A stretch of 64,000 nt of DNA from Escherichia coli (GCF_030384885.1 NZ_CP128613.1), one strand, 5' to 3'. Positions 1,958 through 46,881 are shown, numbered from the stretch's first letter. Numbers and translations are program-made. Notes: generated by a model not told the origin, from the sequence alone.

Positions 1958-3526
1958 TTAGCGTGCCGGCTGAGTAGTCGTGGAAGACTGCTCAAAGTGA
2001 TAGCGACCGGTTTTCAGGCTGCTTGGGCCGAGGCGTGCAAACTTGAACATTAAGAACAATTCTGCCACCAGGAACAGGGTATACAGGCCACAAATCAGCA
2101 CCATCGAGAAGATGAGGTCGCCTGCGGTCAGTGACGAGTTCGCTACAGCTGTCGGCAGCACTTCACCGATAGCCCAAGGTTGGCGACCATATTCAGCCAC
2201 GAACCAGCCCGCTTCTACAGCAATCCACGGCAGCGGAATACCGTACAGTGCGGCGCGCAGCAGCCATTTTTTCTCGCCAATACGGTTGCGGATGACACTC
2301 CAGAAAGAGAGCGCGATGATTGCCAGCAGCAGGAAGCCACACGCCACCATGATACGGAACGCGAAGTACAGCGGCGCTACACGTGGAATGGAGTCTTTGG
2401 TTGCCTGTTGAATCTGCGCTTCAGTCGCATCCGCCACGTTTGGCGTGTAGCGTTTCAGCAACAGACCGTAACCGAGGTCTTTCTTCATGCTATTGAACTG
2501 GTCACGAACCGCCTGGTCAGTAGAACCAGAACGCAGTTGCTCGAGCAGAGAGTACGCCTTCATCCCGTTACGGATGCGTTCTTCATGCTGCACCATCAGC
2601 TCTTTCAGGCCGATAACCGGGGTATCCACGGAACGCGTTGCAATGATGCCCAGCGCGTAAGGGATCTGGATCGCAAATTTGTTCGTCTCCTCTTCCTGAT
2701 CAGGAATGCCGAACAGAGTAAAGGCAGCAGGTGCAGGTTGCGTTTCCCACTCGGCTTCAATAGCAGCCAGTTTGGTTTTCTGCACGTCGCCCATTTCATA
2801 ACCAGATTCATCACCCAGAACAATAACAGACAGAACGGCAGCCATACCGAAGCTGGCAGCGATAGCAAAGGAGCGTTTAGCGAAGGCGAAGTCACGACCT
2901 TTCAGCATATACCATGCGCTGATACCGAGGATGAACATCGCGCCAGTCACATAACCAGACGCTACAGTGTGAACGAATTTCACCTGAGCAACCGGGTTAA
3001 GCACCAGCTCGGAGAAGCTCACCATCTCCATACGCATAGTTTCAAAGTTGAAATCGGATGCGATTGGGTTTTGCATCCAGCCGTTCGCAACCAGAATCCA
3101 CAGTGCGGACAGGTTTGAACCAAGCGCCACCAGCCAGGTGACACACATATGCTGAACTTTACCCAGACGATCCCAACCGAAGAAGAACAGACCTACAAAG
3201 GTGGATTCGAGGAAGAAGGCCATCAGACCTTCGATTGCCAGCGGCGCACCGAAGATATCCCCTACATAGTGGGAATAGTAAGACCAGTTAGTCCCGAACT
3301 GGAACTCCATGGTCAGACCGGTTGCCACCCCCAGAGCGAAGTTGATACCAAACAACTTGCCCCAGAACTTGGTCATATCTTTATAAATCTGTTTGCCGGA
3401 AAGGACGTAGACCGTTTCCATAATGGCCAGCAGGAACGCCATACCGAGCGTCAGTGGCACAAAAAGGAAGTGGTACATCGCGGTCAAGGCAAACTGTAAG
3501 CGCGACAGTTCGACTATATCTAACAT
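1958..3526 (-). CDS. cydA: Cytochrome bd-I ubiquinol oxidase subunit I
   Basis: ORF translation [31 protein letters not shown]... with the GWxxxEYGRQPW Q-loop region; the track ORF begins MM, so the second Met (3526) is taken as the start. Confidence 0.97.
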
Positions 3527-3529
3527 CAT

Positions 3530-3830
3530 GACTCCTTGCTCATCGCATGAAGACTCCGAGAGTGAACCCCGTTAGAAAGGGTCACACGCATGCCCCAATA
3601 CAAAATTATTTGCTCGCCTCTATCGCTGCCTTTTCCTCAAAAGTGGAAAAGACAATGATAAAAAAGTTACAAATATGTTAATGAATAAACCAAATTGATC
3701 CCGTAATTATATTACGCCGCAAAATCCTTACAATAAACAGGTTTTTATTGAGCAAATTTGCATTTTTCGACAGTGATCAATTTATAGCGAAATTGTCACG
3801 ACCTCACCAATTTGATCTACGACAATTTAT
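3530..3830 (-). promoter_or_regulatory. cydAB upstream control region (long AT-rich leader/promoters; ArcA/FNR-regulated in K-12)
   Basis: Position immediately 5-prime of cydA; AT-rich with several TTGAT/ATCAA-like half-sites; individual sites not resolved by eye. Confidence 0.4.
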
Positions 3831-4330
3831 CGTGTTTTGCAGATTTTTTTCAAGAATTAAAAATTGATTTATATCAAAACCAGTCAAATATGTTAATTAT
3901 GTATAAACCATAGACCATTGGTAATTTTATTGTTAATTTATTGTGAAATATTTATGTAACACAATTATTACAATAAAAAGACATAGATAAAAAACCAGTG
4001 TTTTATTTAACAGAATCGCCTTATCAACTTTTTATAATACCAATTGATTAGAGTAGCCAATTTGTTGCTATTTTACATAACATATTTTTATCAAAGTTAA
4101 TTGATTGTTGCCTTTATGAGCATCGCCGTAAGACCGCCATGTTATTGTTTCATTTGTAATAATCACCAATAAGTATCGATGAGAGAGATATCGCTTAACA
4201 GAGGCGACTGTGTCTGCATGAACACAGGCAACTTTCGCCTGATAAACGAAAAATGAGCGATTTTTGCAAGTTAGTTTTTCTATAGCCGGGTACGCTGAGC
4301 GCCTCGCTTGATTACAATGAGGTTGCTGCC

Positions 4331-5275
4331 ATGGGTCTTGATAATATAGGTTCTGTTGTCAATCGCTTCTCTGGTTGGCCATCAAATGATCCTCTAAAAA
4401 CAGATAACGAATCAATGACATCACCCGTGACTGTGCAGGTAATAAAGTTGATTGCCGCCATCCTTGACCCACATCGGATAGTCGTTGGTATCGATACACT
4501 TTATACAACGCAGCGCAAAACATTTACCTCAGAGGGTCAACAACTCATTGAATCAGCATTGAAAACACTTAATGTGATGAATTTAAATAGCCTGGAAACA
4601 GATCGCGATGAGGAGGGTAACTATCTGGCTTTTGGATATAACGTTGACACTCCTGACAGAATAACCGTTTCTGCTTATAATGAAAAAAAACCTTTCTGTT
4701 ATGGCCAATGTCTTTTAATACAGGATGAAGAACCAGATTTATTTAACCTGGTAAAAATTAAAACCTTTGAAGCCAGGCATAATTATGTTTCTAAATTGAT
4801 GAGCGATCCGGAATTTATGTTTAAATTCAGTTATAGCGCCCAACAAAATAGATTAGAACCTCATCTTCTGGTTCCCACTTATTTCCCTCTGAAAACAAAC
4901 CAACCGGTTACGCTAGAGGATGTACTGATACTTTATCGTTTCTTTAAAATGAATGGCGATTTTAATATATTAACATCAGATGAATACATGAGTATCATGA
5001 CACCTCTGATGAAGTGTGAGCGTAGTGTCCACGACCATAACAGGTATGTGACGGGCAAAGATGCTCTTCTTCTGGACAATCCTCCGTCTGGTAACCAGAT
5101 ATATTTCCATATTTCCCCTGACGAATCAGCAACACTTGTCCTTTATTTTTCAGACAATAACCTTGAATCCTTCGTCTTTGAAAATGATATTCCGAGCCAG
5201 TATCGACATTTCAAAATGTTTACCAATTTAGCACTAGTTATTGATCAGTTAACCGACGCCAATCAAATACTTTAA
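4331..5275 (+). CDS. Hypothetical protein (314 aa), no recognisable family; low-GC accessory gene
   Basis: ORF preceded by a GAGG Shine-Dalgarno about 9 nt upstream; AT-rich codon usage unlike the flanking core genes; no transmembrane segments or known motifs seen. Confidence 0.55.
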   Translation: MGLDNIGSVVNRFSGWPSNDPLKTDNESMTSPVTVQVIKLIAAILDPHRIVVGIDTLYTTQRKTFTSEGQQLIESALKTLNVMNLNSLETDRDEEGNYLAFGYNVDTPDRITVSAYNEKKPFCYGQCLLIQDEEPDLFNLVKIKTFEARHNYVSKLMSDPEFMFKFSYSAQQNRLEPHLLVPTYFPLKTNQPVTLEDVLILYRFFKMNGDFNILTSDEYMSIMTPLMKCERSVHDHNRYVTGKDALLLDNPPSGNQIYFHISPDESATLVLYFSDNNLESFVFENDIPSQYRHFKMFTNLALVIDQLTDANQIL

Positions 5276-5354
5276 TTTTCTATACAGCCCTGTGTAAAAT
5301 ATTGCTAAACAGTGCCCGGGGTTGATTTTTATTCCTCACGGTGATATTTAAATC

Positions 5355-5777
5355 ATGACCCCATCTCAGCTCTCTTTTAATACTCTTCCTGTCAATGCAA
5401 CATGCACTTCAGAGATAACAGTAAACACACAAAAATTCTCTGACATCCTCTACTCAGTGGGGTATTCCCTAAAGGATCTGGCTTATCTGAGCAGATGTCT
5501 GGCATCATTACACCCGACACTCGCCAAAAACATTTATGAAACGGAAAATCTCAGCGATCAAAAATTACTGCATATTGATTGCCGTAGTACAAATGAAATC
5601 AAGATAAATATCTTTTTTGGTCAGCAACGAGAAGGATTAATTGAAATTAGTTCTGACACAGTCATTTTTTCGATACTGTCTTCATTGATTGACTCAGCTA
5701 TTTCTGAACATCGACATCAAATCACCGTTAATGATTCAAATAATTCTGAACTATTTTATGAGGATTATACTGATTAA
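5355..5777 (+). CDS. Hypothetical acidic protein (140 aa), co-oriented partner of the upstream 314-aa gene
   Basis: ORF 79 nt downstream of the 314-aa gene on the same strand with the same AT-rich composition; D/E-rich C-terminus. Confidence 0.5.
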   Translation: MTPSQLSFNTLPVNATCTSEITVNTQKFSDILYSVGYSLKDLAYLSRCLASLHPTLAKNIYETENLSDQKLLHIDCRSTNEIKINIFFGQQREGLIEISSDTVIFSILSSLIDSAISEHRHQITVNDSNNSELFYEDYTD

Positions 5778-6320
5778 ATCCACTCTGTGCGAACCTGTCC
5801 TGCATTTATGCCAGAAGTATTAGAATCTTTGATTAACGTTACTCGTACTGGTAGCACCTTCATGTGCCCCTCTTTTTTACGAACAATCAAAAGAACTAAC
5901 AAAGGGCATAATTCGTATAAATCATTAACCATTTGTTATATTCAACATTTTTTTTACATTAAGCAGAGATGAATTGCAGTGAAATTCAAGTTAAATTTTA
6001 CAAAATGTATTACTCATGGCTAAAAAATCTCCCCAAAATGCAAATTAGAAGTTGATCACAATTATCTCAATACATCAAATAAAGTTAATTTTAAAAATTT
6101 AACATTCATGACATTAGTTGACATAACACGCTGAATTAAAATGAGAATTTAAAAACACACTTTAAACAATCATTTCCCGAAAGACATTTTGAAAATAGAT
6201 CAATTGCAACATTACGGTCAGATAAAGACACTCCTCTGATATTAAACCTGTGCCGTTATGAACGGCCATAAATACGACGTGTGTAACTTAATTTACTCTC
6301 TGTCTTACAAAGGATTACCC

Positions 6321-6770
6321 ATGAAGAAAGCAACACTTGTGATTGGCGTTATTGGCGCGGACTGCCATGCAGTAGGCAATAAAGTTCTGGACCGCGTTTT
6401 TAGCAACCATGACTTCAGAGTCATTAATCTGGGCGTAATGGTCAGCCAGGACGAATATATTGATGCTGCCATTGAAACTGGCGCTGACGCAATTGTCGTC
6501 TCCTCTATCTATGGGCATGGCGATATCGACTGTCTGGGCATGCGCGAACGCTGCATTGAGCGTGGCTTGGGGGACATCCTGCTCTATGTGGGCGGCAACC
6601 TGCTGGTCGGAAAACATGACTTCGCTGACGTGGAAACCAAGTTCAAAGAGATGGGATTTGATCGCGTCTTTTCCCCAAGTCATGACTTAGAAGATGTTTG
6701 TCAGCTGATGGCCCACGATATCAACCAACGTCATGACGTTGATACTCGCATTCTTGAAGAGGCAATCTGA
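6321..6770 (+). CDS. Glutamate mutase sigma (S) subunit, B12-binding (GlmS/MutS-type methylaspartate mutase small subunit)
   Basis: Translation [24 protein letters not shown]... contains the DxHxxG cobalamin-binding motif; AAGGA Shine-Dalgarno before the ATG at 6321 (the track ORF starts further upstream); followed by L and E subunits in the clostridial S-L-E order. Confidence 0.85.
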
Positions 6771-8158
6771 TGCAAATCGTCTCTGTCGATATTGGATCGA
6801 CGTGGACCAAAGCAGCCCTCTTCACCCGGGAGGGGGACGCGTTAACGTTGGTTAACCACGTTCTGACCCCAACCACCATCCATCATCTGGCAGAGGGATT
6901 TTTCTCCAGCCTTAACCAGGTGTTAAACGTAGATAATGCCCTCCCCCTGTTAAACCGTGGTGAGGTTGCATTGAAGTATTCCTCCTCTGCCAAAGGTGGG
7001 CTGGCGGTTGCCGCAATGGGATTGGTGCCTTCTATCACCCTGGAAACCGCGAAAGTAACCGCTCACTCTGCGGGTGCTAAAATTGCGCAATATTACGCCT
7101 ACAAGCTGAACCGCCGTGATATCCAGGCACTGGAAGAAACGCAGCCCGATATTCTCTTGTTCACCGGCGGCACCGACGGCGGAGAAGAAAGCTACGGACT
7201 GAATAACGCCCGTGTGCTGGCAGAATCCAAACTCGACTGCGCCATTATTTATGCCGGAAACCGGGATATTCAGGACAAGGTGCAGGAGATCCTCGGGCAT
7301 AAAGACCTGACCATCGTCGACAACGTTCTGCCCGATCTTGACCATCCGAACCCTTTAGCTGCACGCCAGGCTATCTGCGACATATTCCTTAAACGCATCG
7401 TTAAAGGGAAAGGGCTGGATGTCATTGTTGATAAAACAGGCGAAGAACCAATGCCGACACCATGGACGGTCTTTGAACTGGTGAAGGCAATCAGTAACGT
7501 CGATCACAGCTGGAAAGAGTTCATGCTGATCGACATGGGCGGCGCAACCACCGATGTCTATTCCGCCTGTGCCAACACGCTCTCGCCCGACACTGTTTTA
7601 CATGGCGTACCGGAACCCTTCGTAAAACGGACGGTGGAAGGCGATCTGGGAATGCGCGTCTCGGCAATGGTGGTTGGTGAAAGTGCGAAAGAGTTAGTCA
7701 GTGTGAATTTTGCTCAGCAACCCGCACAGTTGGACGCTTTTTATCATTACCTCCGTCATCTAGTCGCTCATCCCGACTACTTACCCGCGAATGCAGATGA
7801 AAAATATTTCGATACCGTCCTGGCCGGACTGTGTGTGGGTTATGCCACCGAAAGACATGCGGGCACCAAAAAAGAGGTCTGCACCTGCGTCGGCAATGTC
7901 GATTTACAGATGGGACGTGACCTGACAACCGTGCGTAAAGTCGTGGGTTCCGGCGGATGGCTCTCGCGTGCCAGTCAGTTCGATATGCATCACTGGTTGA
8001 AATACCGCGAGTTAAACGACGACGGTAAACGCATTCTCTTACCGACCGAATTTGAATATTACCGCGATTCCTGGGGGCTATTACCACTGCTGGCAAACGT
8101 CGCCAGAGTCGATCCGCTGGCCGCCGCGCGCACCAGTATTCAATGCTTAACCCTATAA
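6770..8158 (+). CDS. Glutamate mutase-associated MutL/GlmL protein (putative mutase chaperone/reactivase)
   Basis: 462-aa ORF whose start overlaps the S-subunit stop (TGATG); sits between the S and E subunits as in clostridial glm/mut operons. Confidence 0.75.
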   Translation: MQIVSVDIGSTWTKAALFTREGDALTLVNHVLTPTTIHHLAEGFFSSLNQVLNVDNALPLLNRGEVALKYSSSAKGGLAVAAMGLVPSITLETAKVTAHSAGAKIAQYYAYKLNRRDIQALEETQPDILLFTGGTDGGEESYGLNNARVLAESKLDCAIIYAGNRDIQDKVQEILGHKDLTIVDNVLPDLDHPNPLAARQAICDIFLKRIVKGKGLDVIVDKTGEEPMPTPWTVFELVKAISNVDHSWKEFMLIDMGGATTDVYSACANTLSPDTVLHGVPEPFVKRTVEGDLGMRVSAMVVGESAKELVSVNFAQQPAQLDAFYHYLRHLVAHPDYLPANADEKYFDTVLAGLCVGYATERHAGTKKEVCTCVGNVDLQMGRDLTTVRKVVGSGGWLSRASQFDMHHWLKYRELNDDGKRILLPTEFEYYRDSWGLLPLLANVARVDPLAAARTSIQCLTL

Positions 8159-8176
8159 CAATTAAGGCTGCAATCA

Positions 8177-9622
8177 ATGGAACTTCGAAATAAGAAATTA
8201 ACCCATGACGAATTCATGACCGAGCGGCAACAGGTATTGAAAACCTGGGAAACCGGCAAGGATGTTGAAAACTTTGAAGATGGCGTTAAATACCAACAAA
8301 CCATTCCTGAGCATAAACGCTTCTCTCTTGCCCTGCTGAAAGCAGACAAGGAAGGTAAAACCCTTAGCCAACCGCGCGCAGGCGTGGCGCTGATGGACGA
8401 ACACATCGAACTACTGAAAACACTACAAGAAGAGTGCGATCTGCTGCCGAGCACTATCGATGCATATACCCGTCTGAATCGGTACGAAGAAGCGGCTGTA
8501 GGGATTAAAAAATCCATCGAAGCCGGAACCTCTAAACTGAACGGTTTACCGGTAGTTAACCACGGCGTCGCAGCTTGCCGTCGCCTCACCGAAACTCTGC
8601 AAAAACCGCTACAGATTCGCCACGGCACGCCAGATGCGCGTTTGCTGGCTGAAATCTCGATGGCCAGCGGCTTTACCAGTTATGAAGGCGGCGGCATTTC
8701 CTACAATATTCCGTATGCCAAGCGCGTAACGCTGGAAAAATCGATCCGCGACTGGCAGTACTGCGATCGTTTAATGGGGATGTATGAAGAACACGGGATC
8801 CGCATCAACCGCGAACCGTTTGGCCCACTAACGGGTACGCTAATCCCGCCGTTTATCTCGCACTCTATCGCAATAATCGAAGGCTTGCTGGCACTGGAAC
8901 AGGGTGTGAAGTCTATCACCGTTGGTTATGGTCAGGTCGGCAGCCTGACGCAGGATGTCGCGGCGATCCAGTCTCTGCGTAAACTTGCACACGAATACTT
9001 TCAGAACTATGGCTATACCGACTATGAATTAAGTACCGTGTTTCACCAGTGGATGGGCGGCTTTCCGGAAGACGAATCGAAAGCGTTCGCCATTATCTCC
9101 TGGGGTGCAGCCGTCGCGGGGATGTCTGGTGCCACCAAAGTCATCACCAAAAGTCCGCACGAAGCCTGGGGCATCCCGACTGCTGCTGCCAACATTCAGG
9201 GGCTAAAAGCCTCCCGCCAGATGCTCAACATGGTCAACGAGCAGAAATTCCCGCCGTGCCCGGCGGTTGAACTAGAAATTGAACTGATTAAGAGCGAGGT
9301 TCGCGCGGTACTGAACAAAGTGTTCGAACTGGGTAATGGTGATATTGCGCGCGGTACGGTGCTGGCATTTGAAGCGGGCGTACTGGATGTGCCGTTTGCG
9401 CCAGCCGCCTGCAACGCAGGCAAAATTCTTCCGGTCCGTGACAACACTGGCGCGATTCGCGTACTGGAGGCCGGAGCCGTTCCATTGCCAAAAGATATTC
9501 TCGACCTCCACCACGATTACGTTGCTGAACGCGCGCGCTTTGAAGGACGCCAACCGACATTCCAGATGGTTGTAGATGACATCAATGCTGTATCCCACAG
9601 TAAATTAATAGGAAGACCATAA
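8177..9622 (+). CDS. Glutamate mutase epsilon (E) subunit (methylaspartate mutase large subunit)
   Basis: 481-aa ORF of typical E-subunit length, positioned between the L gene and the methylaspartate ammonia-lyase gene. Confidence 0.85.
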   Translation: MELRNKKLTHDEFMTERQQVLKTWETGKDVENFEDGVKYQQTIPEHKRFSLALLKADKEGKTLSQPRAGVALMDEHIELLKTLQEECDLLPSTIDAYTRLNRYEEAAVGIKKSIEAGTSKLNGLPVVNHGVAACRRLTETLQKPLQIRHGTPDARLLAEISMASGFTSYEGGGISYNIPYAKRVTLEKSIRDWQYCDRLMGMYEEHGIRINREPFGPLTGTLIPPFISHSIAIIEGLLALEQGVKSITVGYGQVGSLTQDVAAIQSLRKLAHEYFQNYGYTDYELSTVFHQWMGGFPEDESKAFAIISWGAAVAGMSGATKVITKSPHEAWGIPTAAANIQGLKASRQMLNMVNEQKFPPCPAVELEIELIKSEVRAVLNKVFELGNGDIARGTVLAFEAGVLDVPFAPAACNAGKILPVRDNTGAIRVLEAGAVPLPKDILDLHHDYVAERARFEGRQPTFQMVVDDINAVSHSKLIGRP

Positions 9623-10863
9623 TGAAAATAAAACAGGCCCTTTTCACCGCTGGCTACTCTTCATTCTATTTCGATGACCAGCAGGCGATAAAAAACGGAG
9701 CGGGTCACGACGGCTTTTTTTATACCGGAGAGCCGGTAACACAGGGGTTTAACGCCGTACGTCAGGCCGGGGAGTGCGTTTCGGTTCAGTTGATTCTGGA
9801 AAACGGTGCGGTCGCCGTAGGCGACTGTGCTGCCGTACAGTATTCCGGGGCAGGCGGTCGCGATCCACTGTTCCTCGCAGAGCACTTTATTCCGTTCCTC
9901 AACGACCATATCAAGCCATTACTGGTAGGCCGCGATGTGGATGCTTTCCTGCCGAATGCCCGTTTCTTCGACAAATTGCGTATTGACGGCAACTTGCTGC
10001 ATACCGCCGTACGTTACGGATTATCACAGGCGCTGCTTGATGCTACCGCGCTGGCAACCGGCCGTCTAAAAACTGAAGTGGTCTGTGATGAATGGCAGTT
10101 GCCACGCGTAGCGGAATCCATTCCATTATTTGGTCAGAGCGGCGACGATCGATATATCGCCGTCGATAAGATGATCCTTAAGGGCATCGACGTGCTGCCC
10201 CATGCGCTGATTAATAACGTCGAAGAGAAGCTGGGCTTTAAAGGTGAAAAACTGCGCGAATATGTCCGCTGGTTGTCGGATCGCATTCTGAGCAAGCGCA
10301 CCAGCGCACGCTACTACCCAACCCTGCACATCGATGTATACGGCACTATCGGTCTGATCTTCGATATGGATCCGCTTCGCTGTGCGCAATACATCGCCAG
10401 CCTGGAAAAAGAAGCGCAAGGCCTGCCGCTCTACATTGAAGGGCCGGTCGATGCCGGTAACAAGCCCGATCAAATTCGCCTGCTGACCGCGATTACCAAA
10501 GAGCTGACGCGCCTCGGTTCCGGCGTGAAAATTGTGGCCGATGAATGGTGTAACACCTACCAGGATATTGTTGATTTCACTGATGCCGCCAGTTGCCACA
10601 TGGTGCAAATCAAAACCCCGGATCTGGGCAGTATTCACAACATCGTCGATGCAGTTCTTTATTGCAACAGCCACAGCATGGAAGCGTACCAGGGCGGCAC
10701 CTGCAATGAAACTGATGTCAGTGCCCGCACCTGTGTCCACGTCGCCCTTGCTGCTCGCCCCATGCGTATGCTGGTAAAACCAGGGATGGGCTTTGACGAA
10801 GGCCTCGATATCGTCTTCAACGAAATGAATCGTACTATCGCGCTGTTGCAGGCTAAGGATTAA
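9622..10863 (+). CDS. 3-Methylaspartate ammonia-lyase (enolase superfamily)
   Basis: 413-aa ORF, start overlapping the E-subunit stop (TAATG); sequence MKIKQALFTAGYSSFYFDDQQAI... and length match MAL; operon context with glutamate mutase. Confidence 0.85.
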   Translation: MKIKQALFTAGYSSFYFDDQQAIKNGAGHDGFFYTGEPVTQGFNAVRQAGECVSVQLILENGAVAVGDCAAVQYSGAGGRDPLFLAEHFIPFLNDHIKPLLVGRDVDAFLPNARFFDKLRIDGNLLHTAVRYGLSQALLDATALATGRLKTEVVCDEWQLPRVAESIPLFGQSGDDRYIAVDKMILKGIDVLPHALINNVEEKLGFKGEKLREYVRWLSDRILSKRTSARYYPTLHIDVYGTIGLIFDMDPLRCAQYIASLEKEAQGLPLYIEGPVDAGNKPDQIRLLTAITKELTRLGSGVKIVADEWCNTYQDIVDFTDAASCHMVQIKTPDLGSIHNIVDAVLYCNSHSMEAYQGGTCNETDVSARTCVHVALAARPMRMLVKPGMGFDEGLDIVFNEMNRTIALLQAKD

Positions 10864-10866
10864 CAA

Positions 10867-12237
10867 ATGGCTCGTTCTTTTAAAGTCTTAGCGCCAACGG
10901 CAATCCTCGGGTATGGATTCCCGGAAGAGAGCTTCCGCAAAGCGATGGCAGAATCGCCCGATCTGATCGCCGTTGATGCAGGATCTTCCGATCCAGGTCC
11001 CCACTACCTCGGGGCAGGCAAACCGTTTACCGATCGCGCAGGAGTCAAGCGCGATCTGCGCTATATGATCACCGCAGGCGTGCAAAATAATATACCGGTG
11101 GTGATCGGAACGGCCGGCGGTTCTGGTGCCGCTCCACACCTGGAGTGGTGCCGAGAAATAATTCATGAGATTGCCCGGGAAGAGCGCCTCTCGTTCTCGA
11201 TGGCGCTGATCCCGGCAGACGTTGACAAAGCCATCGTCCACCAGGCGCTGGATAACGGCAAAATCACGGCGCTGGATTTTGTCCCGCCGTTAACCCACGA
11301 CGCGATTGACGAAAGTACGTATATCGTCGCGCAAATGGGCATCGAACCCTTCCAGCAGGCGCTGAAAGAAGGCGCGCAAGTGGTGCTGGGCGGGCGCGCT
11401 TACGACCCGGCCTGCTTTGCTGCGCTACCGATCATGCAAGGCTTTGATGAAGGTCTGGCGCTGCATTGTGGGAAAATCCTTGAATGCGCGGCAATCGCCG
11501 CAACGCCCGGCTCAGGCTCTGACTGTGCGATGGGCATCATTGATGACAACGGCTTTACGCTGAAGACATTTAATCCGAAGCGTAAATTTACCGAAACGTC
11601 AGCGGCTGCACACACACTGTATGAGAAATCCGATCCCTACTTCCTGCCTGGACCTGGCGGCGTGTTGAACCTGAAAGGCTGCACATTTAAAGCGGTCAAT
11701 GACGGCGAAGTGTACGTCAGCGGTTCTAAGCATGAAGAAACGCCGTATGCCCTGAAACTGGAAGGTGCGCGACGGGTGGGCTTCCGCTGTCTGACCATCG
11801 CAGGAACGCGCGACCCGATCATGATCGCCGGGATCGATAAAATCATCGATGAAGTCAAAACCAGCGTTTCGCGTAACCTGTCGCTCGACGATGACAGCAT
11901 TCGCATCAATTTCCACCTGTACGGCAAAAACGGGGTGATGGGCGACCATGAACCGATGCAAACTGCCGGGCATGAGCTGGGGATTGTCCTTGATGTAGTT
12001 GCACCGACCCAGGATATTGCCAATAGCGTTTGCTCGCTAGTGCGCTCTACCATGCTGCACTACGGCTATGAAAACCGCATCGCTACCGCAGGCAACCTGG
12101 CGTTCCCGTTCTCCCCTTCTGATATCCAGGGCGGGCCGGTATACGAATTTTCCATATATCACCTGATTGAAGCCAACGACGCTCTGCGTTTTGATTTCCA
12201 TATTGAACAGGTGACGCCAGAAGGAGTTCAGGCATGA
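10867..12237 (+). CDS. DUF1446/AtuA-like family protein of unknown function
   Basis: 456-aa ORF 4 nt after MAL in the same operon; family assignment is from memory of AtuA-like proteins and is not verified. Confidence 0.55.
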   Translation: MARSFKVLAPTAILGYGFPEESFRKAMAESPDLIAVDAGSSDPGPHYLGAGKPFTDRAGVKRDLRYMITAGVQNNIPVVIGTAGGSGAAPHLEWCREIIHEIAREERLSFSMALIPADVDKAIVHQALDNGKITALDFVPPLTHDAIDESTYIVAQMGIEPFQQALKEGAQVVLGGRAYDPACFAALPIMQGFDEGLALHCGKILECAAIAATPGSGSDCAMGIIDDNGFTLKTFNPKRKFTETSAAAHTLYEKSDPYFLPGPGGVLNLKGCTFKAVNDGEVYVSGSKHEETPYALKLEGARRVGFRCLTIAGTRDPIMIAGIDKIIDEVKTSVSRNLSLDDDSIRINFHLYGKNGVMGDHEPMQTAGHELGIVLDVVAPTQDIANSVCSLVRSTMLHYGYENRIATAGNLAFPFSPSDIQGGPVYEFSIYHLIEANDALRFDFHIEQVTPEGVQA

Positions 12238-12551
12238 AACAGTCAATTGTCTCACTGGCGCAAGTCATTCGTTCGAAAAATGCCGGACCTTACGAACTGG
12301 TTTTAGATATTTTATTTAAAACGAAAGAAAACTATGAGCGAGTAAAATCATCAGGGCAATTAACCCCAGAACTGATTGCGCGCTTATATCATGTTGAACC
12401 TGACTTTATTCATCGTATTGTCTGGTTTGATCCTTCTAACGCAGTAAAAATTGTCATGCCACGAGATATTATCTCCGGGAATGTAGGTGACAATGATGTC
12501 TATGGCGCACAGCAACATGCACCTTTATTAAATATGAGTTTCGATTTGTAA
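12234..12551 (+). CDS. Small conserved partner protein (105 aa), translationally coupled to the DUF1446-like gene
   Basis: ATGA start/stop overlap with the upstream gene; soluble; DUF1446 proteins commonly pair with a small DUF4387-type protein (recalled, not verified). Confidence 0.5.
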   Translation: MKQSIVSLAQVIRSKNAGPYELVLDILFKTKENYERVKSSGQLTPELIARLYHVEPDFIHRIVWFDPSNAVKIVMPRDIISGNVGDNDVYGAQQHAPLLNMSFDL

Positions 12552-12711
12552 AAATCCGAACACTTTTAGCCAACTGACATCCCGTCACTTATTGCAGCTC
12601 AACACTTCAGCTATTTGTAAGGTTGTTATAGCAGGTAGATGCCTGAATCTCTATTCAGGCATCCACTTCTCCTGATTCTGATTTATCGCCGTGCACCTGA
12701 TGGAGGAAAAA

Positions 12712-13992
12712 ATGAAGAAAATAAGTTTAACCATGATGATTCTTTTGGCGCTGGTACTTGGAATGATTATCGGCGTAGTGCTCAATAACACTGCTTCACC
12801 GGAAACAGCAAAACTCTATGCGCAAGAAATATCGATATTCACGACGATTTTCTTACGACTAATAAAAATGATTATCGCTCCGTTAGTGGTCTCTACCCTG
12901 GTGGTAGGTATTGCTAAAATGGGCGATGCCAAAGCCCTTGGTCGTATTTTTTCTAAAACACTCTTTTTATTTATTTGCGCCTCATTGCTGTCAATTGCCT
13001 TAGGCTTGATAACGGTAAATTTCTTCATGCCAGGCACAGGAATTAATTTTGTTGCACACGGTGCCGAAACCACCGGAGTGGTCGCGTCAGAACCCTTTAC
13101 ACTAAAAGTATTTATTTCGCATGCTTTCCCCACCAGCATTGTCGATGCCATGGCGCACAATGAAATTTTGCAAATCGTGGTGTTCTCAATTTTCCTCGGC
13201 TGTAGCCTGACGGCGATTGGTGAGAAAGGCAGCGCCATCGTTCACGCCTTAGATTCGCTGGCACATGCCATGTTAAAGCTCACTGGCTACGTCATGCTCT
13301 TCGCTCCCCTGACCGTATTCGCCGCTATTTCAGCATTGATTGCTGAACGAGGACTGGCAGTTATGGTGAGCGCCGGGATCTTTATGGGTGAATTTTATTT
13401 CACCATGTTATTACTTTGGGTGCTGCTTATCGGTCTGGCCATCGTTTATGTCGGCCCCTGCATCAGACGCCTGACCCGCGCCCTTTCAGAACCCGCCCTG
13501 CTGGCATTTACCACATCCAGTTCTGAAGCTGCTTTTCCGGGAACGCTTGAAAAACTGGAGCAATTTGGCGTTTCCCCCAAAATTGCCAGCTTTGTCTTAC
13601 CCATTGGCTACTCATTTAATCTCGTTGGATCAATGGCCTACTGCTCCTTCGCCACAGTTTTCATCGCCCAGGCCTGCAATATCCATTTATCCATCGGTGA
13701 GCAAATCACCATGCTGTTGATCCTGATGTTGACCTCGAAAGGAATGGCTGGCGTACCACGCGCCTCAATGGTGGTTATCGCCGCCACGCTCAACCAGTTC
13801 AATATTCCGGAAGCGGGGCTGATCTTGCTGATGGGCGTTGATCCGTTCCTTGATATGGGGCGTTCCGCGACAAACGTCATGAGCAACGCAATGGGCGCTG
13901 CGATGGTGAGTCGGTGGGAAGGCGAACATTTCGGCGAGGGTTGTCGGGGTAAAGCATTAAAACCCAACGAATCGAACGTTGCTCTGCCCTGA
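12712..13992 (+). CDS. Dicarboxylate/amino acid:cation symporter (DAACS family, GltP/DctA-like); probable glutamate or methylaspartate/mesaconate transporter
   Basis: About 426-aa polytopic membrane protein; GGAGG Shine-Dalgarno 6 nt before the ATG at 12712; resemblance to GltP/DctA-type symporters. Confidence 0.8.
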   Translation: MKKISLTMMILLALVLGMIIGVVLNNTASPETAKLYAQEISIFTTIFLRLIKMIIAPLVVSTLVVGIAKMGDAKALGRIFSKTLFLFICASLLSIALGLITVNFFMPGTGINFVAHGAETTGVVASEPFTLKVFISHAFPTSIVDAMAHNEILQIVVFSIFLGCSLTAIGEKGSAIVHALDSLAHAMLKLTGYVMLFAPLTVFAAISALIAERGLAVMVSAGIFMGEFYFTMLLLWVLLIGLAIVYVGPCIRRLTRALSEPALLAFTTSSSEAAFPGTLEKLEQFGVSPKIASFVLPIGYSFNLVGSMAYCSFATVFIAQACNIHLSIGEQITMLLILMLTSKGMAGVPRASMVVIAATLNQFNIPEAGLILLMGVDPFLDMGRSATNVMSNAMGAAMVSRWEGEHFGEGCRGKALKPNESNVALP

Positions 13993-14099
13993 GGGGGATC
14001 TTAAGCAATCAGAAGCCAATGACTACGCATTTTTATAAGCCGGATCATGAAGTTAGACGGCAATTAAGTAACACTAACGTTTAAGGTGAAAAGTGAAAT

Positions 14100-15752
14100 A
14101 TGTCCAAACCATTTATCTGGCAAGAACCGTTTCTACAAAATAAAGACGGTACAGAATATACATTAATTAGCGATCAACATATTACAGTAACGGAATTAGA
14201 CGGCGAAGAAGTGATAAAAATCGCTCCTGAAGCATTAACGCTGCTTGCCCGGCAGGCATTTTATGAAGCCTCTTTTTTCTTACGTTCCGCTCATTTGCAA
14301 CAGGTCGCCAGCATTCTTAACGATCCGCAGGCCAGTAGTAATGATAAATACGTTGCGTTGCAGTTATTACGTAATGCTGAAGTCTCAGCAAAAGGGGTAT
14401 TACCCAACTGTCAGGATACCGGCACCGCAACTATTGTTGCCAGTAAAGGGCAACAGATATGGACGGGAGGTAACGACGCTGAAGCCTTAAGCAAAGGCAT
14501 TTACAGTACTTTCCAGGAAAATAATCTGCGCTTTTCACAAAATGCGCCGCTGGATATGTATACCGAAGTCAATACGCAAACCAATCTCCCGGCGCAGATT
14601 GATATCAGCGCTGTCGCTGGTAATGAGTACCATTTTCTCTGTGTTAATAAAGGGGGCGGCTCCGCCAATAAAGCCGCGCTTTATCAGGAAACCAAATCCT
14701 TATTGCAACCAGAAAAACTGACCGCGTTTTTAATCGACAAAATGAAATCGTTGGGCACGGCCGCCTGCCCGCCCTACCACATCGCCTTTGTCGTCGGAGG
14801 GCTTTCAGCCGATCAAACCTTAAAAGTTGCCAAGCTGGCCTCAACGAAATATTACGACAATTTGCCCACCAGCGGAAATGAGCAAGGACAAGCATTCCGT
14901 GATATTGAGCTGGAAAAAGTATTGCTCGAGGCCAGTCAGCAATTTGGTATTGGTGCGCAATTTGGGGGTAAATATTTCGCTCATGATATTCGCGTCATTC
15001 GTCTGCCGCGTCACGGTGGCTCCTGCCCGATAGCTATGGCGCTCTCCTGTTCTGCCGATCGCAATATCAAAGCCAAAATTAACAAGCACGGTATCTGGCT
15101 GGAAAAACTCGAACACAATCCGGGGCAATATATTCCAGCCTCATTGCGGGAAGAAAATCACGCGCAACATGTACACCTGGATCTAAACCGTCCGTTGCGT
15201 GACGTGATGCAGGATCTCGCCAGATTACCGGTAGGTACCCGCGTGTCGTTAAGTGGTCCCATCGTAGTGGCGCGCGATATCGCCCACGCAAAAATAAAAG
15301 CGCGGCTGGATAGCGGCGAATCGATGCCGGATTACCTGAAGCATCATATTGTCTATTACGCTGGCCCGGCGAAAACACCGGAGAACATGGCCTGCGGTTC
15401 ACTGGGTCCAACCACGGGCGGTCGAATGGACGGTTATGTCGAAACCTTCCAGGCGGCTGGCGGCAGTCTGGTAATGTTATCGAAAGGTAACCGCAGCCAG
15501 CAGGTCACCGATGCCTGTCACAAACATGGCGGCTTCAATCTGGGAAGTATTGGCGGTGCAGCTGCGTTACTGGCGCAAGAATATGTCAAAAGTCTGCGTT
15601 GCCTGGAATACCCGGAGCTGGGTATGGAAGCGGTGTGGATGATGGAAGTGGAAAATCTGCCCGTATTCATCCTGGTCGATGATAAAGGCAATAATTTCTT
15701 TAGTCAGTTTGAGCAGCAACACCGCTGCGCCAGTTGCCCTGCGGGACATTAA
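14100..15752 (+). CDS. fumD: Class I (Fe-S) fumarate hydratase family enzyme; probable mesaconase (mesaconate hydratase) of the methylaspartate pathway
   Basis: 550-aa ORF with class I fumarase character and C-terminal Cys-rich region; genomic association with glutamate mutase and MAL; a mesaconase/fumarase FumD has been described in E. coli O157:H7 (recalled). Confidence 0.75.
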
Positions 15753-15761
15753 GGAAAATGA

Positions 15762-16364
15762 ATGGAAGCGCGAATTTCAACTGAACGGCATGTGCAGCGC
15801 CAGCAGAAATTGAAGGAACAGGTCGATACGCGCGTCGCGGCGGCGATAGAGAAAAAAGGGATCTTGATTGTTTTCACCGGCAACGGCAAAGGGAAATCCA
15901 CTGCCGCGTTTGGTACTGTAACGCGCGCGGTGGGCCATGGCAAAACGGTGGGGGTTGCGCAGTACATCAAGGGGCAATGGGACAACGGCGAATACAACCT
16001 TCTCCAGCCGCTGGGGGTTGAGTTTCATATTATGGGAACCGGTTTTACCTGGGAGACTCAGAACCGGCAAGCGGATATCGACGCGGCGAAAGAGGTCTGG
16101 TCGGAAAGCAAACGGATGCTGGCTGACAAGCGTTACGACTTAGTGGTGCTTGATGAGCTGACCTATATGCTGGCTTACCATTATCTGGACACCGAAGAAG
16201 TGATCACTTCTCTGCAAAACCGCCCGGCACAACAAAGTGTCATTGTCACCGGACGCAGTTGCCACAGTCAGATATTAAAAATGGCGGATACGGTCAGCGA
16301 AATCCGCCCCGTCAAACATGCTTTTGATAACGGCATTCAGGCGCAGCCGGGTATCGACTGGTAA
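15762..16364 (+). CDS. Cob(I)alamin adenosyltransferase (BtuR/CobA family), island-encoded copy
   Basis: 200-aa ORF with P-loop GNGKGKST and overall resemblance to BtuR; functionally coherent with a B12-dependent mutase. Confidence 0.8.
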   Translation: MEARISTERHVQRQQKLKEQVDTRVAAAIEKKGILIVFTGNGKGKSTAAFGTVTRAVGHGKTVGVAQYIKGQWDNGEYNLLQPLGVEFHIMGTGFTWETQNRQADIDAAKEVWSESKRMLADKRYDLVVLDELTYMLAYHYLDTEEVITSLQNRPAQQSVIVTGRSCHSQILKMADTVSEIRPVKHAFDNGIQAQPGIDW

Positions 16365-16397
16365 TAACTGCGCCTGGCATCCCGCCAGGCGCAGGTT

Positions 16398-17303
16398 TTA
16401 CATCTCCTGCGGTACGACCGATTTCGCCAGCAACCATTCACGAAATTGCTGCAAGTGCGGCGAGTCAGACTTCTCTTCCTGCCACGTCATAATAAAACGA
16501 TTACCGGTACGAATAGGCACATCACAGGGAATCACCATATCGCCACTATCCAAATCATGTTGAATAGCGAACCGTGGTAACAGCGCCACGCCGAGATTAG
16601 AGCGCACGGCGGCAATCAGCATTGAAAGCAAATCGAAACGTGGTCCGTTATTGACCAGCGGACTGCTAACGCCAGATAAAGCAAACCACTCTTCCCAGCC
16701 AGTAATACGGGTGCTTTGATGCAGAAGTGGTAACTCAGTAAGCAGTTCTGCCACTGACAGTTTTTGATCGGACATTGCAAGCAAACTGCCGCTGCATACC
16801 GGCAAAATCTCCTCTTCAAAGAGATATTCGACCTCCGCCCAGGGCGCGCAAAAATTTTCGCGCATAATGACAGCATCGTACTCCCGATTAAGAAAATCGC
16901 CGTTATTAGCTAAAGAATGAATATTAACAATAATATCGGGATGTAACTTTGTGAATTCATGTAAATTTGGGATTAACCAGTGGGTACTAAACGTAGGATT
17001 AACGGCAAGTTCAATAACCTGAACCGTAGGCTGCCAGGTCATAATCGTATTGGTATCGCGTTCCAGCTTATTTAATGTTTCTTTTACTATCCCCAGGTAA
17101 TACTTCCCTGCATCATTAAGAAAAATGCGTTTTTTAGAGTGTGAAAATAACGGAGTATGTAAAAATTCCTCCAGCGCACTTACTTGTCTGAATACAGCAC
17201 TTTGGGTTAACGCTAACTCCTCTGCCGCTCTGGTATAGCTTTCATGACGTGCGACGACCTCAAAAGTCACCAGCAGCTCCGTTTTAGGTATTTTTCCTCG
17301 CAT
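16398..17303 (-). CDS. LysR-family transcriptional regulator
   Basis: N-terminal helix-turn-helix TFEVVARHESYTRAAEELALTQSAVFRQVSALE followed by a LysR substrate-binding region; the track ORF uses a TTG upstream, ATG at 17303 preferred. Confidence 0.8.
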   Translation of the reverse strand: MRGKIPKTELLVTFEVVARHESYTRAAEELALTQSAVFRQVSALEEFLHTPLFSHSKKRIFLNDAGKYYLGIVKETLNKLERDTNTIMTWQPTVQVIELAVNPTFSTHWLIPNLHEFTKLHPDIIVNIHSLANNGDFLNREYDAVIMRENFCAPWAEVEYLFEEEILPVCSGSLLAMSDQKLSVAELLTELPLLHQSTRITGWEEWFALSGVSSPLVNNGPRFDLLSMLIAAVRSNLGVALLPRFAIQHDLDSGDMVIPCDVPIRTGNRFIMTWQEEKSDSPHLQQFREWLLAKSVVPQEM

Positions 17304-17892
17304 AATGCCGTCCGTGAAAAAATAACAATTCAAAAATTATTTTATAAAAAACAGTAGCACTAATGAATATCATAATTCAAATAAACAAACCAGTCAGCTA
17401 TATGTCTAACCAGGAAAATAAAGTGACAATAATCCTAAAACAGGAATTTCACCTCAGTTATCCGCATGCAATACTTTAAAGCTATTATTGCAAGAATATT
17501 ATTCATATACATGAATATACTCTAAATAAGTCAAGTTGCAGGAAGGGAACAAATAATGAATATCCAGAAGCTTACATAAGTAAGTGACCTGGGTGAGCGA
17601 ACATCGATGCAGCACATGCAACTTGAATTATGACAAGTATACAATGATAAATTTATATACCCTATGTTATATATTATCTATGTCCGGTTAAATTGAATGA
17701 GTCATAGCCTTAAAAGACTTCACAAAAGATAATTCCTCTTTAACAATAAGCCAGATTTACCACTTGTAAAACTTGCTATCGCCACATACACTACGCGCGT
17801 TTTCTTTCCCTTTTGCTGGCTGCTGACCGGAAAGACAAAATTACCCTCGCAATACAGGGGGTTGATTAACGTCTATATTTCAGGACAGCGTT

Positions 17893-19290
17893 ATGCATCA
17901 TCTTTCAAGGCTTGATAAAGCCTTTCTGCGCAAAGGGATCCAACTTTCCCGCGCCAACAATATTGTTTCATTATGTCGTCCATCAGGAGCCAGTGCCCGC
18001 GTACTGCTGCCGGACGAACTGCTGCTGGAAGAAAAAGCAGTGACACAACTGCTTGATTTTGCAGAAGTGAAGATACCAGGCCATCCAGGTTACGTACGCC
18101 AGACCTGTGCGACGCCAGATTTTCATCCCGGCAATGGCGTCCCCGTTGGCGCGGTGGTGGCCTCTACGCCGGATTTAGTCATTCCTGCGGCCATCGGCAC
18201 CGATATTTCTTGTGGCATGCGGCTGCTGACGACCGGATTAACACTTGAGCAAGCCGAAGCGCATAAAGACATCATCACTCAGCGGTTAACGCAAGTGCTA
18301 CTGCAAAATGAGCGCGATGTTCCGTTATCCGCACAGGCGTTCACCGCGCTTTTTGATGGCGGACCGGCAGAGTGCATGTCAGCCTTGCCATCAGCAGGTC
18401 TCTGGACACGCACGAATATCCCCCGAATGGTACAAGAGATTGACCGCTGCATTGGGCTTAACGAGCATAACAGTCATTCGCGTTATGCCCCACCCGCCCT
18501 GCTGGCAACGGACCGCGCATTACTCCGCGATCCTTGTCTGGGTACGCTGGGTTCAGGTAATCATTTTATTGAACTTCAGGTCGTTGATAGCGTGGTTGAT
18601 CGCCATGTAGCCTGGCAACAAGGGCTGAAAACAGGCGATATTGTGGTGATGATCCACAGTGGATCGCGAGATGTTGGCTTTTACGTCGGAAGACGCTGGA
18701 TGGATCGCGCCCGTGCTGAATGGCCCACCGGACATAAACATCCACAAAGCGGGTTATATGGTCTGGCAGGCGGACTGGCGGAGGAATATCTACAAGCGAT
18801 AGGAATGGCGGCGCGTTACGCGTGGTTAAATCGCGTGACAATTGCCGAAATGGTGCGCGTATGTCTTGCCAATCTCTTTCATCAGGACAATTCGCATCTG
18901 GTGGTGGATGTGCCACATAACATCATCCTTCGCGAGCATGAAATGAATATTCATCGCAAAGGCGCAACACCGGCACGAGTGGGCAATCTGGCGTTAATCC
19001 CCGGTTCAATGGGCGATTATTCCTGGCTTGCGGTAGGTTGCGGCAACCCGGAGTGGCTGTGGTCATGCAGTCACGGAGCAGGACGCAGCCAGCGTCGGCA
19101 GGCCATGCGCTCACGCGCGACTGAAGAGTCAACGTTGCCGTGGCAATGCGTCACATTGCGCGAAGAACGACGTCTTGAAGAAGCGCCAGCGGCTTATAAA
19201 GATATTGGTCCGGTTATCGAAGCTCAACAAGAAGCCGGATTAATTCAGCCAGCGGTCAGATTTCGACCGTGGTTAACGTTTAAAGCATAA
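17893..19290 (+). CDS. RtcB-family RNA ligase-like protein (orphan paralog, 465 aa)
   Basis: Motifs IPAAIGTDISCGM and C-terminal CSHGAGRSQ resemble RtcB metal-binding and active-site regions; no rtcA, rtcR or prfH-like gene nearby. Confidence 0.75.
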   Translation: MHHLSRLDKAFLRKGIQLSRANNIVSLCRPSGASARVLLPDELLLEEKAVTQLLDFAEVKIPGHPGYVRQTCATPDFHPGNGVPVGAVVASTPDLVIPAAIGTDISCGMRLLTTGLTLEQAEAHKDIITQRLTQVLLQNERDVPLSAQAFTALFDGGPAECMSALPSAGLWTRTNIPRMVQEIDRCIGLNEHNSHSRYAPPALLATDRALLRDPCLGTLGSGNHFIELQVVDSVVDRHVAWQQGLKTGDIVVMIHSGSRDVGFYVGRRWMDRARAEWPTGHKHPQSGLYGLAGGLAEEYLQAIGMAARYAWLNRVTIAEMVRVCLANLFHQDNSHLVVDVPHNIILREHEMNIHRKGATPARVGNLALIPGSMGDYSWLAVGCGNPEWLWSCSHGAGRSQRRQAMRSRATEESTLPWQCVTLREERRLEEAPAAYKDIGPVIEAQQEAGLIQPAVRFRPWLTFKA

Positions 19291-19291
19291 A

Positions 19292-19316
19292 AAAGGCCAT
19301 CATATGATGGCCAACC
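19292..19316. terminator. Bidirectional rho-independent terminator shared by the RtcB-like gene (+) and the sucD 3-prime UTR (-)
   Basis: Perfect hairpin aaaaaggccatcatatgatggcc flanked by A-run and T-run equivalents on both strands. Confidence 0.65.
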
Positions 19317-19387
19317 ATGTCGAAACCGACAGCCCTTCGCCATTCCTGTAAAGGGAAGCGGCGAGGGCTATTTCTTATTACAGATAT
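19294..19387 (-). ncRNA. sdhX: Probable SdhX (RybD) sRNA derived from the sucD 3-prime UTR
   Basis: Positional inference: the interval between the sucD stop and the terminator hairpin corresponds to where SdhX is processed from the sdh-suc transcript in K-12; sRNA sequence not independently verified. Confidence 0.4.
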
Positions 19388-20257
19388 TTATTTCAGAACA
19401 GTTTTCAGTGCTTCACCGATATCCGCCAGGCTGCGAACGGTTTTCACGCCTGCGGCTTCCAGAGCAGCGAATTTCTCATCCGCAGTCCCTTTCCCACCGG
19501 CAATGATGGCACCCGCGTGGCCCATACGTTTGCCTTTCGGCGCAGTTACACCAGCGATGTAACCTACAACTGGCTTGGTAACGTGCTCTTTGATGTACGC
19601 AGCCGCTTCTTCTTCAGCGCTACCGCCGATCTCACCGATCATCACGATCGCTTCGGTCTGCGGATCTTTTTCGAACATTTCGAGGATGTCGATAAAGTTA
19701 GAGCCAGGGATCGGGTCGCCGCCGATACCAACACAGGTCGACTGACCGAAACCGTAATCCGTGGTCTGTTTAACCGCTTCATAGGTCAGTGTACCGGAAC
19801 GGGAAACGATACCCACTTTACCCGGTTTGTGAATGTGACCAGGCTGGATGCCGATTTTACATTCACCCGGAGTGATAACGCCCGGGCAGTTCGGGCCGAT
19901 CATGCGTACGCCAGCTTCGTCCAGTTTCACTTTCACGGTCAGCATATCCAGCGTCGGGATGCCTTCAGTGATGGTGATAATCAGTTTGATACCTGCGTCG
20001 ATGGCTTCCAGAATGGAGTCTTTGCAGAACGGAGCCGGTACGTAGATAACAGAAGCGGTAGCGCCAGTGGCAGCAACGGCTTCACGCACGGTGTTGAACA
20101 CCGGCAGACCAAGGTGGGTAGTACCGCCTTTACCAGGGGTTACGCCGCCAACCATTTTAGTGCCGTATGCAATGGCCTGTTCAGAGTGGAAAGTCCCCTG
20201 GCTACCAGTAAAGCCCTGGCAGATAACCTTGGTGTTTTTATCAATTAAAATGGACAT
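19388..20257 (-). CDS. sucD: Succinyl-CoA synthetase alpha subunit
   Basis: 289-aa [48 protein letters not shown]...; 1-nt overlap with sucC. Confidence 0.97.
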
Positions 20258-46215: not shown

Positions 46216-46217
46216 AA

Positions 46218-46799: not shown

Positions 46800-46881
46800 A
46801 TCATCCAGTTAAATTTCAGTAGTAAATCGTCTATCAAAAAAAGATGAAATTAACATTCATAAATTTATTACAATATGAAAA

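Follow-up and report, generated by a model that had tools for sequence, protein, structure and literature searches.

The 64,000-nucleotide stretch of one strand of the Escherichia coli genome analyzed here (GCF_030384885.1, NZ_CP128613.1; hereafter the window) carries, between cydA and sucD, an island of nine intact genes, all co-directional on the plus strand (6321-16364) and adjoined by a convergent LysR-type regulator gene. We predict, with a probability of roughly 85%, that this is an enterobacterial methylaspartate-pathway island encoding every step by which glutamate is broken down to pyruvate, acetate and ammonia. An earlier sequence-only reading of the window had recognized the operon correctly, but the system is already known: it is the cluster published by Kronen and Berg in 2015 (PMC4682846), and lyase structures were released in 2025.

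The RefSeq annotation was that of record NZ_CP027579.1 (E. coli 2013C-4282, human stool, USA), whose sequence is identical to the window. Between cydA and sucD it lists two hypothetical proteins, the nine cluster genes, a LysR-family regulator on the opposite strand and an RtcB-family protein, and its gene calls agree with the NCBIfam assignments of the cluster. The cluster begins with glmS (6321-6770, +; WP_000710387.1) for the predicted small, B12 cofactor-binding subunit of glutamate (methylaspartate) mutase, and continues with glmL (mutL; 6770-8158, +) for the accessory or reactivating protein of the mutase, glmE (8177-9622, +) for its catalytic (epsilon) subunit, and mal (9622-10863, +) for 3-methylaspartate ammonia-lyase (MAL). 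These are followed by cmlA (10867-12237, +) and cmlB (12234-12551, +), encoding an AtuA/DUF1446 and a DUF4387 protein that are the putative large and small subunits of a citramalate lyase, and then by genes for a DAACS-family dicarboxylate/amino acid:cation symporter (12712-13992, +), a predicted class I (Fe-S) fumarase-type mesaconase acting from mesaconate to (S)-citramalate (fumD; 14100-15752, +), and a cobO/cobA-type ATP:cob(I)alamin adenosyltransferase (cobO; 15762-16364, +). RefSeq names these genes glmS, glmL, methylaspartate mutase subunit E, methylaspartate ammonia-lyase, dicarboxylate/amino acid:cation symporter, class I fumarate hydratase and cobO, and calls the lyase pair "acyclic terpene utilization AtuA family protein" and "DUF4387 domain-containing protein". 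Judged against NCBIfam, Pfam and RefSeq, all nine assignments made from the sequence alone were correct, as was the S-L-E-mal gene order.

The earlier description of tightly spaced or overlapping genes also held. Junctions overlap by 1-4 nucleotides at glmS/glmL, glmE/mal and cmlA/cmlB (the cmlB start lies over the cmlA stop by 4 nucleotides) and are spaced by 3-18 nucleotides at glmL/glmE, mal/cmlA and fumD/cobO; the exceptions are gaps of 160 nucleotides 5' of the symporter gene and 107 nucleotides 5' of fumD. The operon end formerly placed at 16364 is exact, but the start given as 6189 lies about 130 nucleotides too far upstream: the frame from 6189 is interrupted by a TGA at 6237-6239, while GlmS comprises 149 amino acids from 6321, is fully covered by its family models and is preceded by an AAGGA ribosome-binding site 7 nucleotides upstream.

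The AT-rich intergenic region 5' of glmS (5778-6320, 543 bp) has a guanine-plus-cytosine (GC) content of 31.7% and presumably carries the operon promoter and regulatory region; a consensus scan found promoter sites no more frequent than in shuffled sequence and gave no usable promoter call. A cobalamin riboswitch at this position was rejected because an Rfam scan of 3000-20000 at E <= 1 returned neither a riboswitch nor any other RNA family. Downstream of the cobO stop, the consensus scan found a GC-rich hairpin (16368-16394; 11-bp stem, 9 pairs G-C) between the convergent stop codons of cobO and lysR, likely a bidirectional terminator for both genes. The regulator gene itself (16398-17303, minus strand) encodes a GcvA-like LysR-family protein that scored 221 bits on the GcvA subfamily model, below its cut-off of 288.

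Predicted enzymes from glutamate to citramalate

NCBIfam equivalog models were judged against their curated cut-offs, which were exceeded by GlmS, GlmL, GlmE, MAL, the FumD-type fumarase and the CobA-type adenosyltransferase. GlmS scored 251 bits on NF002612 (cut-off 110) and 245 bits on TIGR01501, matched PDB 1I9C (E 1e-48) and, when aligned to Clostridium cochlearium GlmS, retained the base-off/His-on B12-binding motif DxHxxG as D14-C-H16-A-V-G19. For GlmE, TIGR01503 was the sole model matched (863 bits, cut-off 390), PDB 6H9E/1CB7 aligned over the full length (E about 1e-189), and the alignment kept the sequence contexts of R66, R100, R149, E171 and Y181 (C. cochlearium numbering), which we take, from the published structure, to be the substrate-binding residues of the glutamate mutase large subunit. 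MAL scored 542 bits on TIGR01502 (cut-off 286), matched the Citrobacter amalonaticus enzyme in PDB 1KKO (E 2e-269) and aligned without gaps over residues 1-409 to the C. tetanomorphum enzyme (1KCZ). Residues Q172, H194, D238, E273, D307, Q329, K331, T360, C361 and L384 are kept at identical positions, among them the MAL-specific catalytic bases K331, H194 and Q329 and the Mg2+ ligands D238, E273 and D307. GlmL reached 879 bits on TIGR01319 and 506 bits on NF040745 (cut-off 475); its chaperone role comes from the literature cited by Kronen and Berg (PMC4682846). By these scores, structure matches and residues, GlmS and GlmE have the family features of an adenosylcobalamin-dependent glutamate mutase, the activity predicted for them. 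CobO scored 295 bits on NF004637 (cut-off 185) and 245 bits on TIGR00708 (cut-off 168), and its translation carries the Walker A (P-loop) motif GNGKGKST.

FumD exceeded the cut-off of NF011921 (1275.7 bits, cut-off 1060) and stayed under those of the FumA/FumB-type models (922.9 bits on FumA NF011919, cut-off 1105; 919 bits on NF011920, cut-off 1094). Cys104, Cys223 and Cys317, candidate ligands of the [4Fe-4S] cluster, are present, each one residue off the FumA positions 105, 224 and 318. The protein is 98.0% identical to FumD of E. coli O157:H7, for which mesaconase activity has been measured and mesaconate was preferred 2- to 3-fold over fumarate (PMC4682846). By that identity, the window enzyme is predicted to be a mesaconase that likewise prefers mesaconate.

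The AtuA/DUF4387 pair

The sequence-only reading had found no citramalate lyase in the window and had left the pathway end-point unresolved. The narrow part of that statement stands, since none of the classical CitDEF-type lyase (the acyl carrier protein CitD, CitE and CitF) is annotated anywhere within the 64 kb, but the end-point question would be answered by the cluster itself, because what had been described as a DUF1446-like protein with a small partner matches a deposited citramalate lyase. The cmlA product aligned over its full length to chain A of PDB 9ERQ/9EVF (E 1e-292; 420 of 456 residues identical, 92.1%), and the cmlB product did so to chain B (E 5e-57; 88/104 identical, 84.6%). 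The molecules in these entries are named "Citramalate lyase, subunit A (cmlA)" and "subunit B (cmlB)", and the titles describe an AMPPNP - citramalate complex (9ERQ) and an ADP - pyruvate complex (9EVF), released 2025-10-08. At the level of Pfam, the cmlB product belongs to PF14330 (DUF4387; E 3e-39) and CmlA matches PF07287 (AtuA; E 7e-19, residues 63-393). An AlphaFold model of CmlA built from a 74-homologue alignment (predicted local distance difference test, pLDDT, 87.7) superposed on 9EVF chain A at a template modeling (TM) score of 0.96; a single-sequence model (pLDDT 39.8) was discarded. The PDB sequence is ~97% identical to proteins in Klebsiella, Raoultella and Citrobacter genomes. 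In a preprint (10.64898/2026.01.16.699985), cmlAB from Raoultella planticola was used to cleave citramalate to pyruvate and acetate, with neither acyl carrier protein (ACP) nor CoA required, and E. coli showed cmlAB plasmid-dependent growth on mesaconate together with label flow into acetyl-CoA.

Gene neighborhoods were compared in a scan of one genome per species (GTDB r220) with a CmlA alignment as query, from which the 80 best loci (57-99% identity to CmlA) were kept. These comprise 29 loci from Enterobacterales and 51 others (Riflebacteria, Aminicenantes, Lentisphaerae, Spirochaetes, Acidobacteria, Myxococcota, Bacillota, Anaerolineae, Azoarcus, Telmatospirillum, Paludibacterium and others); they represent the closest CmlA relatives only and make no statement on the wider AtuA family, and each count is limited to loci with enough contig on the relevant side. 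The mal gene lay directly 5' of cmlA in 72 of 75 loci, the order glmS-glmL-glmE-mal-cmlA was kept in 60 of 64, and cmlB adjoined cmlA in all but one (75/76); a class I fumarase gene followed within 5 kb downstream in 22 of 25 enteric and 16 of 34 other loci. On account of these orders and adjacencies, the CmlA clade of the AtuA family is a fixed part of the glutamate mutase/methylaspartase module, and such linkage to mal and glm is what would be expected of a downstream pathway enzyme. We consider the DUF1446/DUF4387 pair very probably to be the two-subunit citramalate lyase CmlAB, an activity predicted for E. coli, and the label "acyclic terpene utilization" misleads when it is applied to this clade.

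The main gain is one of annotation. Because RefSeq still labels the two lyase genes as AtuA family and DUF4387 proteins, pathway reconstructions halt at citramalate in about a fifth of E. coli genomes, O157:H7 included, and in many Citrobacter, Klebsiella and Salmonella arizonae genomes. Once CmlAB is recognized, the B12-dependent pathway in these bacteria would be complete, and glutamate, an abundant compound in the gut, would be converted to pyruvate, acetate and ammonia.

As to the nucleotide, we raise as a tentative and rather doubtful idea that CmlAB is more than a simple aldolase: bound ATP would turn the C4 carboxylate of citramalate into an activated acyl phosphate, yielding pyruvate and acetyl phosphate, with the ATP regained via acetate kinase. 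The acyl phosphate would thereby play the chemical part that the thioester has in ACP- or CoA-dependent lyases. Neither ackA nor pta was among the recurrent gene families kept beside cmlAB in the 51 non-enterobacterial loci. If true, this chemistry would constitute a new route to an accessible carboxylate enolate and would alter the energy balance of enterobacterial glutamate fermentation.

A further protein of about 315 amino acids, with the Walker A motif GAEGSGKST, is encoded in 41 of the 51 non-enterobacterial loci (L032-L083, e.g. L061:11691-12638; 46-88% identity), nearly always 0-142 nucleotides 3' of cmlB; neither the window nor any enterobacterial locus encodes it. This protein matched no Pfam, NCBIfam or PDB family, and its similarity to CobO was confined to the Walker A motif. 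It may represent an additional part of the lyase or mutase machinery that enterobacteria have lost.

Predicted route and competing explanations

The proposed route would begin with import of the substrate by the DAACS symporter, which presumably takes up glutamate. GlmS and GlmE, with adenosylcobalamin, would convert L-glutamate to (2S,3S)-3-methylaspartate, with GlmL as accessory or reactivating protein and with CobO supplying the cofactor by adenosylating salvaged cob(I)alamin. MAL would then remove ammonia from methylaspartate to give mesaconate, FumD would hydrate mesaconate to (S)-citramalate, going by the biochemistry of its 98%-identical O157:H7 counterpart, and CmlAB would cleave citramalate to pyruvate and acetate with no need of ACP or CoA, by analogy with the 92%/85%-identical Raoultella enzyme. 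The convergent LysR-type regulator, whose gene is conserved beside the cluster in enterobacterial loci, is presumed to control expression of the operon. On stoichiometry alone, combination with pyruvate formate-lyase, Pta and AckA would turn glutamate and 2 H2O into NH3, 2 acetate and formate in a redox-balanced manner, with a yield of one ATP.

Among the 80 loci the DAACS symporter is kept only in the enterobacterial ones. In Escherichia whittamii (L021) and Escherichia sp. E1V33 (L031) the cluster stands between cydA and sucD with neither the DAACS transporter nor cobO, and fumD follows almost directly after cmlB; the transporter and the adenosyltransferase are thus optional modules.

Several points weigh against this reconstruction. 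E. coli lacks de novo B12 synthesis, and the pathway therefore depends on salvaged corrinoid. The best NCBIfam matches of the symporter, which Kronen and Berg label GltP (PMC4682846), both fell under their cut-offs (DctA, 312 bits, cut-off 513; GltP NF008440, 302 bits, cut-off 638). Within the literature library searched (DUF1446/DUF4387, CmlAB, citramalate lyase from 2023 onwards, and AtuA with citramalate), no primary CmlAB paper was found, and the lyase assignment rests on the titles of PDB deposits, the use of the enzyme in one preprint and gene neighborhood. Finally, methylaspartase activity, citramalate lyase activity and anaerobic growth on glutamate were all negative in O157:H7 ATCC 700728 under all conditions tried (PMC4682846), so expression of the operon in E. 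coli is putative.

These negative assays bear on the possibility that the island is not transcribed in E. coli and is carried along as a passenger without any present role, for example through xenogeneic silencing of its AT-rich upstream region. Such a state would agree with the lack of any known expression condition for O157:H7 (PMC4682846), with the low GC content of the 543-bp region 5' of glmS (31.7%) and of the two genes upstream of it (36-38%), and with the absence of the cluster from ~79% of E. coli genomes. All nine open reading frames, however, are full length and of the same length in two diverged strains (the window strain and O157:H7), and over the nine genes the ratio of nonsynonymous to synonymous divergence (dN/dS) against O157:H7 is 0.067 (dS 0.073), from which we conclude that they are under purifying selection and not decaying. 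The cluster also occupies the same site in several genera, and silencing in the laboratory is compatible with a role in the gut. We therefore regard a silent passenger as unlikely.

About as improbable is that the main substrate is an external C5-dicarboxylate or amino acid (methylaspartate, mesaconate or citramalate) entering via the DAACS carrier, with the mutase as one of several entry points. The transporter is as close to DctA as to GltP, FumD and CmlAB alone are enough for growth of engineered E. coli on mesaconate (10.64898/2026.01.16.699985), and methylaspartase-bearing enterobacteria have been reported that do not grow on glutamate alone (PMC4682846). Yet the B12-dependent mutase, its accessory protein and the dedicated adenosyltransferase are all under strong purifying selection, and the mutase genes are co-ordered with mal-cmlAB across phyla; since this retention and co-ordering would be hard to explain otherwise, glutamate is unlikely to be a non-substrate.

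We attach far less weight still to a pathway that ends at secreted (S)-citramalate or mesaconate, for instance as a host effector, with the DUF1446/DUF4387 pair unrelated to it. This was raised by Kronen and Berg, who did not detect citramalate lyase activity in O157:H7 extracts (PMC4682846), and would suit a window in which no CitDEF-type lyase is annotated, but the pair matches the deposited CmlAB over its full length (92% and 85% identity) and is placed almost invariably directly after mal, and the negative lyase assays came from cells that were not expressing the cluster at all, as judged from the concomitant absence of MAL activity (PMC4682846). Lastly, we see only a negligible chance that the S and E proteins form part of a different B12 mutase or that the ammonia-lyase falls in a different enolase-superfamily clade: GlmS does match the B12-binding domains of methylmalonyl-CoA mutase, methionine synthase and aminomutases, but at no more than 48 bits, far under the cut-offs and against 251 bits for its own model, GlmE matches TIGR01503 only, MAL combines 542 bits on TIGR01502 with all MAL-specific residues, and these family scores, together with the structure matches and the catalytic and cofactor residues, fit GlmS, GlmE and MAL, the identities given to them at the outset. 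The preferred explanation thus remains a complete methylaspartate route starting from glutamate.

Related clusters, distribution and neighboring genes

The fumD-containing cluster of O157:H7, suggested beforehand to be related, is the same cluster: nucleotide identity is ~97%, the nine window proteins are 98.0-100% identical to those of O157:H7 strain NE92, and the chromosomal site as well as the content and order, from the pair of hypothetical genes upstream to the LysR regulator, are identical, the difference being an extra RtcB-family gene between lysR and sucD in the window strain. Kronen and Berg named FumD, drew the same gene set with GltP, CobA and LTTR, and reported a prevalence of 14.8% of Enterobacteriaceae, 26.5% of E. 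coli and 90.6% of O157:H7 strains (PMC4682846). The function of the DUF1446 gene 3' of mal was not known to them, and the fate of citramalate was left unclear (PMC4682846), a gap of 2015 filled by the PDB entries released in October 2025. With the Raoultella-type CmlAB in those entries (9ERQ/9EVF), the window pair shares the DUF1446/AtuA plus DUF4387 two-subunit architecture and, at TM 0.96, the predicted fold.

The clostridial methylaspartate operon has the same chemistry, from glutamate to pyruvate and acetate, and the same S-L-E-mal order, and the window GlmE, GlmS and MAL match clostridial structures at E values of 1e-189, 1e-48 and 7e-150, respectively. It differs in using a two-subunit mesaconase and an ACP-dependent CitDEF-like lyase (PMC4682846), where the window has the single-chain class I fumarase FumD and CmlAB, and a GntR-type instead of a LysR-type regulator; the window cluster, unlike the clostridial operon, has a built-in DAACS carrier and a CobA-type adenosyltransferase. 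A GntR-family regulator gene (about 335 amino acids) was also observed 5' of glmS in 23 of the 51 non-enterobacterial loci (e.g. L067:4410-5417), while enterobacteria have the convergent downstream LysR-type gene, which indicates that the regulator was exchanged and the enzyme core kept. In the haloarchaeal methylaspartate cycle mesaconate is activated to mesaconyl-CoA and the cycle serves acetate assimilation, whereas in the window free-acid mesaconate would be hydrated and then cleaved. AtuA of the Pseudomonas acyclic terpene utilization cluster belongs to the same Pfam family, PF07287, as CmlA but is a distant relative, and it stands among atu genes whereas CmlA stands with mal and glm.

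At the site of the island, E. coli K-12 carries mngB-mngA-mngR, so that the comparison bore out the mngR-mngAB content given earlier for this locus. Homology to K-12 stops near 3902 and resumes near 19283, which gives the island a length of ~15.4 kb in the window strain. At least 80% of the island is present in 1116 of 5426 complete E. coli genomes, and its LysR gene in 1133 (~21%; O157:H7 included). The locus, missing from K-12, is accordingly not universal in the species; universality would have spoken against the earlier interpretation. The mng sequence occurs in 3884 of the 5426 genomes, and the glm and mng counts are compatible with alternative alleles plus a third state.

The arrangement cydA-cluster-sucD is also found in several Citrobacter species, Klebsiella grimontii, Klebsiella oxytoca, Salmonella enterica subsp. 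arizonae, Pseudescherichia vulneris and Escherichia whittamii, and in Citrobacter sedlakii NBRC 105722 (L020, 3-4959) mngB-mngA-mngR lie directly 5' of glmS, with both gene sets side by side. Because of this recurrence across genera and the adjoining mng genes in C. sedlakii, we favor an old presence at the site, followed by repeated losses or replacements, over a recent arrival from beyond the family, and the long residence proposed in the sequence-only reading is plausible. In GC content, glmS-cmlB stand at 52% and the transporter gene, fumD and cobO at 49-53%; the intergenic stretches upstream and the hypothetical gene pair have 32-38%.

These two hypothetical genes (4331-5275 and 5355-5777, +; 314 and 140 amino acids; 36-38% GC) lie between cydA and glmS, inside a low-GC block at 3530-6320, and had no match in NCBIfam, PADLOC or PHROGs. 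O157:H7 has them too, and among the 80 cross-species loci they occur only in L004, which is labeled Citrobacter and has cluster proteins 97-100% identical to those of the window; the pair seems to have been added to the cluster only in E. coli and its close relatives.

At the other border, between the LysR gene and sucD, a stand-alone gene for an RtcB-family (RNA ligase-like) protein occupies 17893-19290 (+), with neither rtcA nor rtcR nearby. The best NCBIfam stretch of its product covers residues 213-464 at 210 bits (cut-off 407), and the PHROG "tRNA splicing ligase" model covers residues 68-465. The gene is absent from O157:H7 NE92, and the variable segment at about 17322-19246 is present to at least 80% in 280 of the 5426 E. 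coli genomes; since no more than 144 of the 1133 cluster carriers have the LysR-RtcB junction, the RtcB-family gene also stands in other contexts. The distal 63% of the query recurs in the 76-kb record NZ_CP195869.1 (E. coli FXCREC043), starting at position 1 of that record, which may be a chromosomal fragment. Elsewhere in the window, at about 45400-47300 (record positions 1916547-1918369), the ybgA-ybfA interval contains genes for a contact-dependent growth inhibition immunity protein and small hypothetical proteins together with an IS630 transposase fragment, and looks like a small variable islet unrelated to the glutamate operon.

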